DNA from: a virus
Taxonomy: Duplodnaviria > Heunggongvirae > Uroviricota > Caudoviricetes
Virus record (IMG/VR): IMGVR_UViG_2671180427_000006
Location: 1-4,715 of that record
Length of the DNA: 4,715 nucleotides
Reading direction: 5' to 3' (one strand)
This document shows, in pieces, positions 1 through 4,715 of this stretch (the first letter of the stretch is position 1; each line of letters opens with the position of its first letter). The position numbers were made by a program, and so were the translations under genes. The notes beneath the pieces were generated by a model. It was not told the origin of the DNA and ran no database searches. It saw only the letters and a list, made by a program, of their open reading frames with translations.

Positions 1-1692
1 GTCAGTGGTGCAACTGAGCCGGAGTGGTACTACGTCATCGTACTGGCCGGGCAGTCCAATGCCATGGCTTACGGTGAAGGGCTTCCGCTTCCGGATTCAT
101 ACGATGCGCCCCATCCGCGCATTAAGCAACTGGCCCGTCGTAACACAGTGACTCCCGGTGGTGAAGTATGCGTATTTAACGACATCATTCCTGCTGACCA
201 TTGTCTGCATGATGTTCAGGATATGAGTACGATTAACCATCCCCGGGCTGACCTGAGCAAAGGGCAGTACGGCTGTGTCGGACAGGGCTTACATATTGCC
301 AAAAAACTGCTTCCGTATATCCCTAATAATGCGGGGATCCTGCTGGTACCATGCTGTCGTGGTGGTTCGGCATTCACCCAGGGCACGGAGGGGACATTCA
401 GCGAGTCCACGGGGGCCAGTCAGGATTCGGCTCGCTGGGGAGTGGGTAAGCCGTTATATCAGGATCTGCTTTTCCGCACGAAGGCAGCATTGCAGAAAAA
501 CCCGAAAAACGTTTTGCTGGCGATATGCTGGATGCAGGGGGAATTCGATATGACGAATGCCAGTTACGCCCAGCAGCCAGCAGCATTTCTTGCAATGGTA
601 CAGCAGTTCCGTGCTGACCTTGCCGGGCTGGCGGCGCAGTGTCACGGTGGAAGTCCGGCATCAGTCCCCTGGATTTGTGGCGACACGACATACGCGTGGA
701 AACAAGAACACGGTACGCAATATGAAGTGGTATATGGTGCATATAAAGGTAAAGAATCCCAGCAGATTTATTTTGTTCCCTTTATGACCGATGGTAGCGG
801 AGTTAATACACCGACAAACAACCCGTCAGAAGATCCTGATATTGTCGGGTCTGGTTATTACGGTTCGGCATCCCGAACGAACAAAAACTGGGTATCATCA
901 AATCGCCCGACGCATTTCAGCTCATGGGCGCGTCGTGGCATTATTCCCGATCGTATGGCAACCGCTATTCTGAACGCAGTCGGGCGCACCTCAGCCTTCA
1001 TCAGTGGTAAGGCACCGGAAATCAAACCCTCGCCCGGCGGCGACACGCCATCGGGTCCGTCTGCAGATACGTCCGTTCGCACAATCTCCCTGCTGCCGAC
1101 AGCCGGAGAGGCTGCTGCGCAGGGCTGGACCATTAAGGACGGCGGAATTCAGTTGTCGGGTGGTGTATTTAAGATCGCCAAGCAGAGCAATAAAACCTGG
1201 TCCCTGACGCGCCCGGTGGATGACGCAGTCTCCCTGCTGACACGGGGTGGCAGACTGAGCTGTAAGTTTCGACTGTCAGGCGCACTGACCAACAATCAGT
1301 TCGGTCTGGGAATTTATCTGTATACCGATGTAGCGTTACCTGACGTCGTGGCGATGACGGGTACCGGTAACCCGTTCCTGATGTCGTTCTTCACCCAGAC
1401 CACAGACGGCAAACTGAATCTGATGCATCACAAGAAAGCAGGAAACACAAAGTTGGGCGAGTTCGGGAATTACAGTAACGACTGGCAGACGCTGGAGCTG
1501 GTGTTCACCGCCGGCAGTGCCACGGTTACTCCGAAACTGAATGGAGTGGCTGGCCCGGCATTCCAGGTCATAAAAGACAGTCTGACACTGGGGCTGAATG
1601 CGCTGACGCTGACGGATATTACCAAAAATGCAGCGTATGGCGTTGAGATAGAAAGTCTGGTGCTGGAGATAAATGCACCGGCATCATCATAA
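1..1692 (+). CDS. nanS-p: Sialate O-acetylesterase, SGNH/SASA family (NanS-p-like prophage esterase); 5'-partial, start lies upstream of window
   Basis: The reading frame is open from base 1 with no stop before the first ATG at 64. The conserved motif YVIVLAGQSNAM spans that ATG, so Met-64 is internal. GQSN (catalytic Ser block), a downstream Gly block (CCRGGSAF), the WMQGEFD (QGE) block and a later His fit SASA-type carbohydrate esterases. Stop TAA at 1690-1692. The long C-terminal Gly/Thr/Ser-rich extension is of unknown function. Confidence 0.8.
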   Translation, partial: VSGATEPEWYYVIVLAGQSNAMAYGEGLPLPDSYDAPHPRIKQLARRNTVTPGGEVCVFNDIIPADHCLHDVQDMSTINHPRADLSKGQYGCVGQGLHIAKKLLPYIPNNAGILLVPCCRGGSAFTQGTEGTFSESTGASQDSARWGVGKPLYQDLLFRTKAALQKNPKNVLLAICWMQGEFDMTNASYAQQPAAFLAMVQQFRADLAGLAAQCHGGSPASVPWICGDTTYAWKQEHGTQYEVVYGAYKGKESQQIYFVPFMTDGSGVNTPTNNPSEDPDIVGSGYYGSASRTNKNWVSSNRPTHFSSWARRGIIPDRMATAILNAVGRTSAFISGKAPEIKPSPGGDTPSGPSADTSVRTISLLPTAGEAAAQGWTIKDGGIQLSGGVFKIAKQSNKTWSLTRPVDDAVSLLTRGGRLSCKFRLSGALTNNQFGLGIYLYTDVALPDVVAMTGTGNPFLMSFFTQTTDGKLNLMHHKKAGNTKLGEFGNYSNDWQTLELVFTAGSATVTPKLNGVAGPAFQVIKDSLTLGLNALTLTDITKNAAYGVEIESLVLEINAPASS

Positions 1693-1777
1693 AAAGTGAG
1701 CCAGTCAAATGGAAGGTATCGTTAAACTCACCGGTAGTGTCAGTGGGGCGTCTGAGATGCCTGCATGAGTTATCAGA

Positions 1778-1807
1778 GCCATCAGTACTTAACTGGTGGC
1801 TTTTTTT
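1778..1807 (+). terminator. Rho-independent terminator between the esterase gene and the holin
   Basis: Stem GCCATCAG (1778-1785) / CTGGTGGC (1793-1800), 8 bp with one G-U pair, 7-nt loop TACTTAA, followed by TTTTTTT (1801-1807). Confidence 0.55.
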
Positions 1808-1842
1808 ATTGTTGTCAGCTTCCGGATAACGGGAGACGGGGT

Positions 1843-2058
1843 ATGTACCAGATGGAAAAAATCACAACAGGTGTGTCATACACCACGTCAGCGGTGGGAA
1901 CGGGCTACTGGTTCCTGCAGTTGCTGGACAGGGTTTCCCCGTCTCAGTGGGCGGCAATAGGCGTGCTGGGGAGTCTGCTGTTTGGGCTGCTGACATATCT
2001 GACTAACCTGTATTTCAAAATCAGAGAGGACCGTCGTAAGGCTGCACGGGGAGAGTAA
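1843..2058 (+). CDS. S: Class II holin, phage 21 S-type (pinholin family), 71 aa
   Basis: [71 protein letters not shown]. Two TMDs, the first Gly/Ala/Ser/Thr-rich (SAR-like), with a charged C-terminus; near-identical in pattern to S21/EssD as recalled. SD GGGAG (1831-1835) 7 nt before ATG 1843; a second in-frame Met at codon 4 gives a dual-start motif. Confidence 0.9.
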
Positions 2059-2062
2059 TTCA

Positions 2063-2413
2063 ATGACTCAAAACTATGAACTGATTGTGAAAGGGATCCG
2101 CAATTTTGAGAATAAAGTTACGGTAACTTTAGCGTTACGGGACAAAAAACGCTTTGACGGTGAAATTTTTGACCTGGACATCTCGCTGGACCGTGTTGAA
2201 GGTGCCACGCTGGAGTTTTATGAGGCAGCAGCCAGAAGGAGCATCAGACAGGTCTTCCTGGATGTTGCTGCCGGGTTATGTGAAGGGGATGAGCAGTCGC
2301 CGGAAAAGCGCCCCGTAATTTTAGAGGCGCAGAATGTATGGATAACCTACAAAGGAAAGCTACCGGGAATAATTACTGGTTCTCTGAAGACTCCTCCGGA
2401 ATCACAACCTTAA
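2063..2413 (+). CDS. ydfR: DUF1327 family protein (YdfR-like), 116 aa, conserved but uncharacterised lysis-cassette gene
   Basis: SD GGGAGAG (2049-2055) before ATG 2063, starting 4 nt after the holin stop. The N-terminal sequence MTQNYELIVKGIRNFENKVTV and the position between holin and endolysin match my recollection of YdfR in the E. coli Qin prophage (essQ-ydfR-rrrQ). Confidence 0.72.
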   Translation: MTQNYELIVKGIRNFENKVTVTLALRDKKRFDGEIFDLDISLDRVEGATLEFYEAAARRSIRQVFLDVAAGLCEGDEQSPEKRPVILEAQNVWITYKGKLPGIITGSLKTPPESQP

Positions 2414-2476
2414 GTCACTGACCGGAACAGATAAACCTGTCCGTGGGCAGAAACCGATAAATCCTGATAAATATCC

Positions 2477-3010
2477 ATGAACACCAAAATCAAATACGGC
2501 CTGTCGGCTGCCGTTCTGGCGCTGATTGCCGCTGGTGCGCCTGCGCCTGACATTCTCGACCAGTTTCTGGATGAAAAGGAAGGTAACCACACCACGGCAT
2601 ACCGTGATGGCGCGGGTATCTGGACCATCTGCCGCGGTGCCATCCTGGTGGATGGCAAACCTGTCGTTCCTGGCATGAAGTTGTCGAAGGAAAAATGCGA
2701 CCGGGTTAACGCCATTGAGCGTGATAAGGCGCTGGCATGGGTGGAGAAAAACATCAGAGTGCCATTGAGTGAACCCCAGAAAGCGGGGATCGCGTCATTC
2801 TGTCCGTACAACATTGGCCCCGGTAAGTGTTTTCCGTCGACGTTTTATAAACGAATTAATGCAGGTGATCGCAGGGGAGCGTGTGAGGCGATTCGCTGGT
2901 GGATTAAGGACGGTGGCAGGGACTGCCGTATTCGCTCAAATAACTGTTACGGTCAGGTATCCCGTCGTGACCAGGAGAGCGCGCTGGCGTGCTGGGGAAT
3001 CGACAGATAA
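2477..3010 (+). CDS. R: SAR endolysin (T4-lysozyme-like muramidase with N-terminal signal-anchor-release domain), 177 aa
   Basis: Weakly hydrophobic Ala/Gly-rich N-terminal TMD (LSAAVLALIAAGAPAP) followed by catalytic E35-x8-D44-x5-T50 (EGNHTTAYRDGAGIWT), as in phage 21 R21. Pairs functionally with the pinholin upstream. Confidence 0.92.
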   Translation: MNTKIKYGLSAAVLALIAAGAPAPDILDQFLDEKEGNHTTAYRDGAGIWTICRGAILVDGKPVVPGMKLSKEKCDRVNAIERDKALAWVEKNIRVPLSEPQKAGIASFCPYNIGPGKCFPSTFYKRINAGDRRGACEAIRWWIKDGGRDCRIRSNNCYGQVSRRDQESALACWGIDR

Positions 3011-3101
3011 GCAGAATATTTTGCTAATAAATGACGTTGGCCAAGGCGGATGGATAACACGAAATCCTGCGAACTGGCAAAATGTAAGTGAATAAAAGTA
3101 A

Positions 3102-3140
3102 AAACCCCGTTTGTTGGCAGCAAGCGGGGTTTTGTTTTTA
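3102..3140 (+). terminator. Strong Rho-independent terminator (bidirectional in appearance) about 90 bp after the endolysin
   Basis: Stem AAACCCCGTTTG (3102-3113) / CAAGCGGGGTTT (3121-3132), 12 bp with one G-U, 7-nt loop TTGGCAG, then TTTTGTTTTT. An A-rich tract upstream (AATAAAAGTAAAA) gives a T-tract on the opposite strand. Confidence 0.75.
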
Positions 3141-3204
3141 TGGCAGTAAGCTATGGGAGGCTGCCTTGATTGATTTTAGCAAACTGATTAGGGAGTTGCG
3201 ACTC

Positions 3205-3300
3205 ATGATTAGTCAATTACCAAACTGGAAATTTTTGCTGGTCTGGAGCATCCCTTTTTTATGGGTAGTATCCCAGTTAATTGTGGCAATTAAGGGGTAG
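3205..3300 (+). CDS. Hypothetical small hydrophobic peptide, 31 aa (MISQLPNWKFLLVWSIPFLWVVSQLIVAIKG)
   Basis: ATG 3205 preceded by SD GGGAG (3191-3195) with 9-nt spacing; one predicted TMD; stop TAG 3298-3300 sits 2 nt before the next ORF's ATG. Too short for the supplied ORF track. Confidence 0.4.
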   Translation: MISQLPNWKFLLVWSIPFLWVVSQLIVAIKG

Positions 3301-3302
3301 CT

Positions 3303-3434
3303 ATGTCAGACAAACTCATAACGCCGGCAAAGGTCCTGTGTGTGATTGTCGGTATTTCATTTTCACTAATGCTGGTTGCTCTTTTTCTGTCCTTCGCCTG
3401 GGTGATGTTGTCTTCGTCGGGGCTGCTGGGGTGA
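3303..3434 (+). CDS. Hypothetical small membrane peptide, 43 aa (MSDKLITPAKVLCVIVGISFSLMLVALFLSFAWVMLSSSGLLG)
   Basis: ATG 3303 with SD AAGGGG (3293-3298); polar N-terminus then a ~26-residue hydrophobic segment (single TMD); stop TGA 3432-3434 overlaps the GTG of the next ORF (GTGA). Confidence 0.45.
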   Translation: MSDKLITPAKVLCVIVGISFSLMLVALFLSFAWVMLSSSGLLG

Positions 3435-3553
3435 CAGTGACTGATGACATCAGCAGAGCGCTGGCTTTTGCTATTAAGTGGGTGGCTGTTGGTATTGCTG
3501 TGTCTCCGATGCTGTATGGGCTGGCAAAACTGGTCATTGCGCTGAAATCGTGA
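3431..3553 (+). CDS. Hypothetical small hydrophobic peptide, ~40 aa from GTG 3431 (start uncertain; ...TDDISRALAFAIKWVAVGIAVSPMLYGLAKLVIALKS)
   Basis: Open frame ending TGA 3551-3553; candidate GTG starts at 3431 or 3437; shares the motif RA(L/M)AFAI(K/R)xVA with the next peptide. The longer TTG-3281 version in the ORF track overlaps the previous ORF and lacks an SD. Confidence 0.35.
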   Translation: MTVTDDISRALAFAIKWVAVGIAVSPMLYGLAKLVIALKS

Positions 3554-3564
3554 ACTTTAAAAAG

Positions 3565-3651
3565 ATGAGTGCTGAACTTATTCGGGCAATGGCATTTGCC
3601 ATTCGTATTGTGGCCATTGCTGTTCTGGTCTGGGCAATCCGTTGGTGGTGA
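3565..3651 (+). CDS. Hypothetical small hydrophobic peptide, 28 aa ([28 protein letters not shown]), paralogous to the preceding peptide
   Basis: ATG 3565, 11 nt after the previous stop; stop TGA 3649-3651 is 1 nt before the Rz ATG; single hydrophobic helix with a Trp-rich C-terminus; no strong SD. Confidence 0.35.
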
Positions 3652-3652
3652 T

Positions 3653-4147
3653 ATGAACCGTGTTCTGTGTGTGGTGATTATTGTCCTGCTGGTAGCCTGT
3701 GGTGTGCTTAGTCTGGGGCTGAATCATTACCGCGATAACGCCATCACCTACAAAGCGCAGCGCGATAAAAAAGTCAGTGAGCTGAAACTGGCGAATGCCA
3801 CTATTACTGACATGCAGCAGCGCCAGCGAGATGTCGCTGCGCTTGATGCCAGATACACGAAGGAATTAGCCGATGCGAGAGCTGAAAATGAAACTCTGCG
3901 CGCTGATGTTGCCGCTGGTCGTAAGCGCCTGCGGGTCAACGCCACCTGCCCCGGTACCGTGCGTGAAGCCACCGGCACCTCCAGCGTGGATAATGCAACC
4001 GGCCCCCGACTGGCAGACACCGCTGAACGGGATTATTTCATCCTCAGAGAACGGTTGATGACAATGCAGAAGCAGCTGGAAGGGGCGCAGGAATATATCC
4101 GCACTCAGTGCACTAAGCTGGCTTTTTATTATCCGGAGGATACATGA
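3653..4147 (+). CDS. Rz: Rz i-spanin (inner-membrane spanin subunit), 164 aa
   Basis: [40 protein letters not shown]..., an N-terminal TMD plus coiled-coil periplasmic domain, closely matching lambda Rz as recalled ([41 protein letters not shown]). ATG 3653 chosen over the upstream GTG 3569 of the ORF track. Confidence 0.92.
3873..4058 (+). CDS. Rz1: Rz1 o-spanin (outer-membrane lipoprotein spanin subunit), 61 aa, embedded in the +1 frame of Rz
   Basis: [61 protein letters not shown]: signal peptide with lipobox (VSAC), Pro-rich mature part, strong similarity to lambda Rz1 as recalled. SD AAGGA (3859-3863) 9 nt before ATG 3873. Confidence 0.88.
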
Positions 4148-4368
4148 AGAAATTACGGGTAACCGTAGAACCTTTTCAGGGAACAATTCCGTTCCGTATT
4201 TTGCAGCGTGGTCGTGTTCTTGTTGAAGGTTCGTTCAGTGGTAAATGTACGCAATTACACTCCCGGACCTTTCAGGTGAATGCCACGAATGAAGAGCTAA
4301 CCGTGGAGTGTACGATGAATGCCGCTAAATGCCGCATGGTATCCGCTGCATTACAGCCAGTGTGTTGA
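4144..4368 (+). CDS. Hypothetical protein, 74 aa, basic N-terminus, four Cys, no TMD; start overlaps Rz stop (ATGA)
   Basis: ATG 4144 overlaps the Rz TGA (4145-4147) and is preceded by SD GGAGGA (4135-4140). [74 protein letters not shown]. No family recognised by me. Confidence 0.45.
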
Positions 4369-4571
4369 GCGACCTTATTATCCATGCGCGGTATTGTCGC
4401 CGTATTCCTGCATTAACAGAGACCGCAGCCCGACAGGGAGACTCCTCTGCGCGAGTGTGCGGGGATAATCAAAAACGATACACACCGGGGTTTACCGCGT
4501 TAACGGAGCGCGGCGTTGTCCCCTCATAGTCGCCTGTCCGGTGCGATGGTGGAAGAAACCGGACTACATTG

Positions 4572-4594
4572 AAAATGATAACCATTATCATTTT
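4572..4594. repeat. Perfect 10-bp inverted repeat AAAATGATAA-CCA-TTATCATTTT resembling a Fur box, immediately upstream of cosQ/cosN
   Basis: Arms 4572-4581 and 4585-4594 are exact reverse complements. The core AATGATAACCATTATC matches the Fur consensus GATAATGATAATCATTATC at 15 of 16 overlapping positions. No properly spaced -10 element is evident. Confidence 0.5.
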
Positions 4595-4595
4595 T

Positions 4596-4680
4596 GCGGG
4601 TCCTTTCCGGCGATCCGGGCCGTTACGGGGCGGCGACCTCGCGGTTTTTCACTATTTATGAAAATTTTTCAGGGAAAATC
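4596..4680. other. cos: cos region of a lambda-type phage (cosQ-proximal flank, cosN, beginning of cosB)
   Basis: GCGGGTCCTTTCCGGCGATCCGGGCCGTTACG | GGGCGGCGACCT | CGCGGTTTTTCACTATTTATGAAAATTTTT closely matches the lambda right end, cohesive end and first bases of the left end (recalled lambda: ACGGGTCCTTTCCGGTGATCCGACAGGTTACG / GGGCGGCGACCT / CGCGGGTTTTCGCTATTTATGAAAATTTTCC). Confidence 0.85.
4628..4639. other. cosN: cosN 12-nt cohesive-end sequence (terminase nicking site; virion genome left end would begin here)
   Basis: Exact match to the phage lambda 12-nt 5' cohesive end GGGCGGCGACCT, preceded by GTTACG as at the lambda right end. Confidence 0.85.
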
Positions 4681-4715
4681 GTGTCGGTACTTCTCGAATA
4701 TAACTTTTTGTTTTT

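Follow-up and report, generated by a model that had tools for sequence, protein, structure and literature searches.

The closest described counterparts of the sequence element considered here are the Fur sites at nohA, in the Qin prophage, and at nohB (nohD), in the DLP12 prophage, of Escherichia coli K-12. In the K-12 table of Chen et al. 2007 (PMC2189734) the nohB Fur cluster (25.3 bits, coordinate 579824) stands among the strongest, the nohA cluster has 22.3 bits at coordinate 1634624, or -233 from the start of the gene, and an oligonucleotide carrying the nohA site gave a positive gel shift at 150 nM Fur. The nohA locus was first isolated through an in vivo Fur selection (Vassinova & Kozyrev 2000, cited in PMC2189734), reviews name nohB among the Fur-regulated genes, nohA was classed as Fur-repressed by Myers et al. 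2013, and Grainger et al. (PMC1802558) describe a weak nohA::lacZ fusion and an FNR box at -85.5 from a mapped nohA start, a distance which implies that this start falls inside the Fur box. The available text of the K-12 papers on the nohA and nohB Fur sites holds no mention that we could find of an adjacent cos site. Both published coordinates, when projected onto the current sequence, map exactly onto palindromes that adjoin cos: the Qin palindrome is centered at NC_000913.3 1636600, exactly 233 bp upstream of the nohA start, and the DLP12 palindrome at 580601 (NC_000913.3), which is 579824 plus the 777-bp shift between genome versions. The Qin cos region is lambda sequence around the palindrome and from cosQ to cosN, and the published in vitro gel shift covers this lambda-identical Qin/nohA allele only. 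A perfect FNR-type box (TTGATGCAGATCAA), positive by FNR ChIP-chip and EMSA (PMC1802558), is found about 89 bp to the left of the Fur box in lambda, Qin and DLP12 (~1404-1417 of locus L003, ~2184-2197 of L134 and ~4507-4520 of L005, respectively). An FNR ChIP-seq summit at nohA (U00096.2 1634625; PMC3688515 Table 4) coincides with the center of the Fur box, 1634624, and not with that of the FNR box, 1634713.5.

Lambdoid prophages have other Fur boxes that tie phage DNA to the iron status of the host, such as those of stx1 in Stx1 phages and of the sit operon in lambda-like coliphages. These boxes overlap clear promoters of cargo (moron) genes and have an obvious iron or virulence logic; the box described below, unlike them, abuts a packaging site, has no consensus promoter and has cos and the terminase operon as its constant neighbors. 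The lambda IHF site I1 (in cosB) and the I2 segment offer a different comparison, as sites for host DNA-binding proteins that are likewise held at a fixed position relative to the cos subsites. They are situated rightward of cosN, and their part in the initiation of packaging has been demonstrated; the Fur box, by contrast, is found leftward of cosQ, many functional cos sites do without it, and any role that it has in packaging is at most putative. The left boundary of cosQ was reportedly defined in the work of Wieczorek and Feiss in 2001 and of Cue and Feiss in 1993. The possibility that the palindrome is itself the IHF site "I2" was considered and rejected, since I2 is placed to the right of cosN (PMC4856287).

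The DNA analyzed here, which we call the window, consists of the 4,715 nucleotides at positions 1 to 4,715 of the IMG/VR record IMGVR_UViG_2671180427_000006 (Caudoviricetes), and it represents the late region of a lambdoid prophage, of a type that occurs in Shiga-toxin E. coli. No record was identical to the window along its full length, and the 53 nt around the palindrome recur at 100% identity in many complete E. coli genomes and are annotated in none of them. The window encodes a SASA-type esterase (64-1692), a P21-type holin (1765-2058), a DUF1327 protein (2063-2413), a lysozyme (2477-3010) and, as the last recognizable late gene before cos, the Rz spanin gene (3569-4147, + strand; PF03245, E=7e-51). 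Rz is followed by a 74-aa ORF with no assigned function (4144-4368) and then by a conserved non-coding left flank of ~200 bp (4369-4571, unstranded), which is common to Stx1-type prophages such as Sakai Sp15 and contains no annotated gene. The palindrome and cos occupy the remainder (4572-4715). By alignment with lambda cosQ (48473-48479) and with the phi80 feature annotated as "cosQ; aka R4 region", cosQ (GGGTCCT) is at 4598-4604 on the + strand; the cohesive-end sequence of cosN (GGGCGGCGACCT), identical to the 12-nt ends of lambda and phi80, is at 4628-4639 (+), with the top-strand nick before 4628. Sequence comparison identifies 4640-4715 (+) as the start of the I2/cosB side of cos, ended by the window edge; this segment is identical to CFT073 prophage sequence that runs into a Nu1-type small terminase gene. 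The terminase genes of the window phage fall beyond the window, and no leftward gene is evident next to its Fur box. A search of the entire window with Rfam covariance models (E <= 1) returned no match, and the window therefore contains no known prophage sRNA.

The initial annotation had drawn attention to a perfect 10-bp inverted repeat with a 3-bp spacer, and the letters at 4572-4594 (AAAATGATAACCATTATCATTTT) bear this out, reading AAAATGATAA-CCA-TTATCATTTT with 10-nt arms that are 100% complementary across 3 nt (a feature read without strand). None of 200 dinucleotide-preserving shuffles of the window produced such a palindrome within three mismatches or fewer. The palindrome ends 3 nt, and its 7-1-7 core 7 nt, before the start of cosQ, and the distance of 34-56 bp that had been given between the palindrome and the downstream cosN nick is right, because cosQ and the cohesive end are both placed by the alignment with lambda and phi80. 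A match to the Fur consensus at 15 of 16 overlapping positions had also been claimed; this count is correct, and the comparison with the full 19-mer (GATAATGATAATCATTATC) is even stronger, with its best match (GAAAATGATAACCATTATC) at 4571-4589 on the + strand scoring 17/19 (16/19 on the - strand) and with no match as good in the same number of window shuffles (0/200). The core at 4576-4590, TGATAAC-C-ATTATCA (also unstranded), is conserved among lambdoid cos regions and agrees with the Fur 7-1-7 unit at 13 of 14 positions. Judged by the 19-bp consensus, whether this is viewed as an array of hexamers (here GAAAAT-GATAAC-C-ATTATC-ATTTTT) or as overlapping 7-1-7 units, the site qualifies as an E. 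coli Fur box. A scan of the window, lambda and CFT073 found no sigma-70 consensus promoter over the Fur site, which reproduces the reported absence of a canonically spaced promoter at the palindrome.

The window palindrome is a prophage Fur site of the nohA/nohB type and is largely known already. To call it "unexpected" at this location, as had been done, was wrong: work on E. coli Fur from the 1990s-2000s onward includes the nohA/nohB site, though not described as part of cos. The two K-12 sites occupy the homologous position just to the left of cosQ, have the same TGATAAY-N-ATTATCA core, lie ~233 bp upstream of a Nu1-type small terminase gene and are among the strongest predicted Fur clusters of their genome. 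The window allele differs from them in its C-C center, which yields the perfect 10-3-10 palindrome, and in its better outer hexamers (17/19 vs 16/19); the 19-mer scores of its relatives are 16 for lambda/Qin, 16 for DLP12, 16 for Sp15 and 15 for CFT073. Its left flank is unrelated to those of nohA and nohB, with neither the ylcI/ynfO gene nor the FNR box. The K-12 papers treat their element as a promoter site of nohA, and cos is not named there.

At the same place before GGGTCCT, lambda and Qin have TGATAATCATTATCA, DLP12 and phi80 have TGATAATTATTATCA, and further prophages have TGACAATCATTATCA or TGATAACCATTATCA. IMG/VR was scanned with the cosQ pattern alone, so as not to select on the motif, and this yielded 107 lambda-type cos sites (79 distinct) that represent 30 unrelated left-flank contexts. 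A Fur motif (at least 11/14 to TGATAATNATTATCA) begins 19-23 nt before GGGTCCT in 16 of these contexts; the remaining 14, in which cosQ and cosN are intact, contain no comparable motif. The spacing, where the motif exists, is tightly held, and in 76 sites comprising 37 distinct variants, distant genera included, the interval from the end of the motif to GGGTCCT is 4-8 nt (mode 6). A scan of genome collections found the motif together with cosQ in at least nine genera of the Enterobacterales (Kluyvera, Superficieibacter, Erwinia, Pluralibacter, Serratia, Buttiauxella, Symbiopectobacterium, Kosakonia and Sodalis), which have very different cosQ-cosN spacers and cosN sequences. As a candidate cos subsite the motif is set at a fixed spacing to the other subsites and is not present in all functional lambda-type cos sites. 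Some 30 further matches from the scan, in unrelated taxa such as Colwellia, Streptomyces, Cohnella, Veillonella, Flavobacterium and others, consist of right-end sequence identical to lambda, on contigs of ~3.5 kb or ~48.5 kb or at contig ends, and many have an artificial junction (GGGTCCTTTCCGGTGAAAAAAAAGGTACCAAAAAAAACATCGTCG). These are sequencing control DNA that contaminates public assemblies.

The window is a mosaic of known prophages, with a left flank and palindrome of the Sakai Sp15 allele, a cosN/cosB side identical to that of the CFT073 prophage, and a joint at cosQ (4598-4604). Sp15 couples the same left flank and GGGTCCT to another cosN and another terminase. More broadly, a single left flank with its motif was found joined to three right-hand cos types, and one right-hand type was found both with and without the motif. 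With flanks that are exchangeable in this way, the motif stays with cosQ as a small island, conserved and bounded on either side by recombination joints, and cosQ itself acts as a recombination joint between packaging modules. At several cos sites without a Fur box (IMG/VR loci such as L018, L020 and L067), a canonical GC hairpin followed by T7 (ggccggagaaatccggc-ttttttt) abuts cosQ instead, and it comes after a rightward ORF of ~138 aa; a slot for cargo genes seems to have its edge immediately left of cosQ. The CFT073 prophage encodes, ~700 bp to the left of its cos-adjacent Fur box, a 108-aa protein with a TonB C-terminal domain (PF03544, E=7e-13; NC_004431.1 1423654-1423980, locus L135 455-781), and it also has a small leftward ORF that runs from near the Fur box and begins with a signal-peptide-like sequence (MKIRNILAISLATSSFSCLAF...). 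Two leads from phi80 were set aside: PHI80_64, labeled "putative Fur-regulated protein" (locus L004 378-608, ~900 bp to the left of cos), belongs to no Pfam family, and phi80 lysis in iron-restricted medium (PMC13449921) is, as its authors conclude, independent of iron.

Occupancy of such sites in vivo can be read from the ChIP-exo maps of Gao et al. 2023 (PMC10164565). In strain CFT073, Fur peak P53 (1424699-1424711), found under iron-replete conditions only and upstream of a nohD-like operon, overlaps the motif TGATAATTATTCTCG, which spans 1424694-1424708 on the identical genome version and precedes GGGTCCT by 6 nt. In strain Sakai, peak P90 (2918933-2918945 of NC_002695.1), again iron-replete only, was assigned to the Sp15 terminase operon (PMC10164565). 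The Sakai peaks are given in coordinates of NC_002695.1 and the sequence used here is NC_002695.2, and the offset between versions (v2 minus v1) was calibrated at the stx1 Fur box, which the same data set detects as peak P91 (+123), and at the cirA Fur site, peak P94 (about +130 to +138); the Sp15 cos palindrome taken with P90 gives +125. These offsets are consistent at the three Fur sites, and P90 therefore sits on the Sp15 palindrome (CAAATGATAACCATTATCATTTT), which is identical to the window 23-mer at 22 of 23 positions, the one difference being at an outer position. Iron-dependent occupancy by Fur was thus found in vivo for the homologous alleles of both CFT073 and Sakai. The Sp15 site shares its left flank with the window and differs from it in cosN and in terminase (TerS 158 aa, TerL 707 aa); the CFT073 site is exactly like the window on the cosN/cosB side, but its motif (TGATAATTATTCTCG) is more degenerate and its adjoining leftward genes respond to delta-fur.

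In the same study (PMC10164565) neither the DLP12 nor the Qin site of MG1655 has a listed ChIP-exo peak, nor do the DLP12 site of W3110 and the lambda DE3 palindrome (768425-768439) of BL21(DE3), and none of the Sakai prophage peaks P28, P34, P36 and P50 adjoins a cos site. Read mapping may contribute to the missing K-12 and DE3 peaks, because the DLP12, Qin and DE3 copies resemble one another; the copies are not identical, and low occupancy is an equally possible cause. Overall, binding of Fur at this type of site is well supported, and the suggestion of the initial annotation that the palindrome could be an iron-responsive operator is supported: sites homologous to it are bound by purified Fur, act as Fur titrators in vivo and coincide with ChIP-exo peaks under iron-replete conditions only. 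From these homologs we infer that the window's own allele binds Fur as well.

The transcriptional output of these sites is less uniform, as judged from expression in delta-fur relative to wild type (log2 ratios, Gao et al. 2023, PMC10164565). The CFT073 values are +2.95 and +2.33 for the leftward unit beside the site, with +1.34 and +2.13 for the terminase operon. The Sakai genes ECs2961 and ECs2963 show increases of +1.12 and +1.05, and ECs2976, a distant gene of the same prophage near Q, also rises by +1.05; since ECs2976 rises like the terminase genes, general prophage induction is sufficient to account for the Sakai change. In K-12, MG1655 nohD is at -0.14 with near-zero counts, and W3110 ylcI, ynfO, ybcV and nohD fall, alongside appY. 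Derepression amounts to 2- to 8-fold in CFT073 and about 2-fold in Sakai, with none in K-12, and Fur-dependent repression is modest and inconsistent, being supported in one phage (CFT073), marginal in another (Sakai) and absent in K-12. The fall of appY in W3110 delta-fur is ~20-fold (PMC10164565 Dataset 3), and genes that flank both cryptic cos sites (ybcV, ybcW, ylcI and nohD at one, ynfO and ydfO at the other) fall 4- to 40-fold; MG1655 lacks a fall of this type. AppY was considered as the cause of the W3110 decrease and dropped, since the AppY paper does not mention the cos-flanking genes.

The reading that we favor, and hold to be rather more probable than its rivals together, is that the palindrome is a genuine operator for host Fur at the left edge of cos, which damps weak transcription and which packaging does not need. 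The absence of the motif from 14 of the 30 lambda-type contexts is what argues that packaging can do without it. A very different proposal, which had been raised in the initial annotation as a hairpin-forming element of the late transcript, is that the palindrome works as a nucleic-acid structure, either a terminator-like insulator that keeps transcripts that are not antiterminated out of the terminase operon or a DNA cruciform. The 10-bp palindrome (11-12 pairs with flanking bases) is indeed followed by T5, the fold that includes flanking GGAC/GUCC pairs, with bases of cosQ among them, reaches -14.3 kcal/mol (z = -4.2), and a canonical GC hairpin with T7 takes the same place before cosQ in motif-less contexts. 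The hairpin alone, however, is worth only -7.3 kcal/mol, with a stem that is nearly all A-U and has a single G-C pair; the palindrome was not among the terminators predicted by a scan of the window, lambda and CFT073, and the lambda arms are only 7 nt long with no U-run. Among the 37 distinct variants, 211 arm positions have the consensus letter on both arms, and against 46 one-arm changes, which break pairing, only 2 are compensatory, a pattern consistent with a protein-binding site rather than a hairpin. The letters that never vary belong to the Fur half-site, GATAA/TTATC. The element does not combine the G+C-rich stem, U-run and retained pairing of an intrinsic terminator, nor does it belong to a structured RNA of Rfam, prophage sRNAs included, and a role as a hairpin in the late transcript is accordingly disfavored to the point of being very improbable. 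In the window, GGAC at 4561-4564 is able to pair with GUCC inside cosQ (4599-4602) and so to bracket the hairpin; its closest relatives have GGAT there.

If the palindrome is a protein site, the protein might be another dimer, phage-encoded or a different host regulator, with Fur binding as an incidental property. In its favor, the site is an AT-rich palindrome, and a functional Fur phenotype of the phage is at most putative, but conservation falls precisely on the letters of the Fur half-site (GATAAT/ATTATC), Fur binds homologous alleles directly by EMSA and ChIP-exo, and no alternative candidate protein was found, so that we regard another cognate binder as hardly credible. Fur could also bind with no effect on either regulation or packaging, the site being a relic operator or a neutral high-affinity sequence that hitch-hikes with cosQ through recombination joints on either side of the two. 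The lack of an expression effect in K-12, the missing promoter consensus, the 14 contexts that do without the motif and the behavior of motif and cosQ as a small island between mosaic joints are all in keeping with neutrality. On the other side, the half-site letters are near-invariant in phages of distant Enterobacterales in which the cosQ-cosN spacer and cosN have fully diverged, which is hard to explain without selection, and the adjoining leftward unit of CFT073 is derepressed 5- to 8-fold; on balance we consider neutrality unlikely, though the foremost of the rivals. The operator reading leaves the fixed spacing of 4-8 nt to cosQ unexplained, as no such spacing is required of an ordinary promoter operator, and this leaves room for a neutral, hitch-hiking island or for an accessory role in cos. 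In the latter case a bound dimer, of Fur or another protein, would help the incoming terminase motor to recognize cosQ/cosN as packaging ends, by means such as slowing the motor or bending the DNA. The spacing is kept over unrelated flanks and over different terminase and cosN types (Sp15, Serratia, Sodalis), and the functional cos inserts used in the Feiss laboratory (lambda 48446-182) happen to include the palindrome (48452-48466). Mutations in cosQ are suppressed by changes in terminase or portal that slow translocation, which is counted in favor of such a role. Against it stand the lambda-type cos contexts that have no motif (14/30) and the definition of cosQ as 7 bp only (cited in PMC4669245); no literature link between Fur and packaging was found, and the Fur occupancy data come from lysogens and not from the packaging stage. 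We find help to the motor at the end of packaging doubtful, more so than neutrality.

Returning to the operator, we envisage that in an iron-replete lysogen Fe2+-Fur dimers would occupy the hexamer array GAAAAT-GATAAC-C-ATTATC-ATTTTT and damp weak transcription initiated at the palindrome or reading through it. The transcripts affected would be those that cross cos toward the terminase/head operon on the right and, in phages with a leftward cargo gene beside cos, also those that run leftward into this gene; with iron scarcity or in the absence of Fur the repression would be relieved. For the window phage itself, transcriptional repression as the output of the site, and the particular transcripts affected, are predictions from its relatives. 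A bolder version, to which we give little weight, treats the Fur box as a conserved but optional accessory of cos, in lambdoid phages across Enterobacterales, that is physically coupled to cosQ, with Fur bound 4-8 bp upstream of cosQ and either gating leaky terminase expression in lysogens according to iron or acting on the packaging motor. Were this true, leaky terminase in a lysogen would cut the prophage's own cos, gating by iron status would limit its expression, and Fur would be a previously unrecognized host factor in the lambda packaging region.

As a Fur site the element matters little, because the nohA and nohB sites have long been present in the Fur literature and in genome-wide maps. 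What appears to be new, relative to the literature consulted, is that the "nohA Fur site" is the sequence that abuts cosQ, and that the pairing of a Fur box with cosQ at fixed spacing extends through lambda, phi80, Stx1 prophages and at least nine genera of Enterobacterales and is absent from about half of the lambda-type contexts. A functional pairing would connect the iron status of the host with the expression of, or with events at, the packaging region of many prophages, those of Shiga-toxin phages included. If the pairing has no function, the site would illustrate how a transcription-factor site can be strong and conserved and yet have little regulatory output, and would be a caution for regulon maps that place "terminase" in the Fur regulon.
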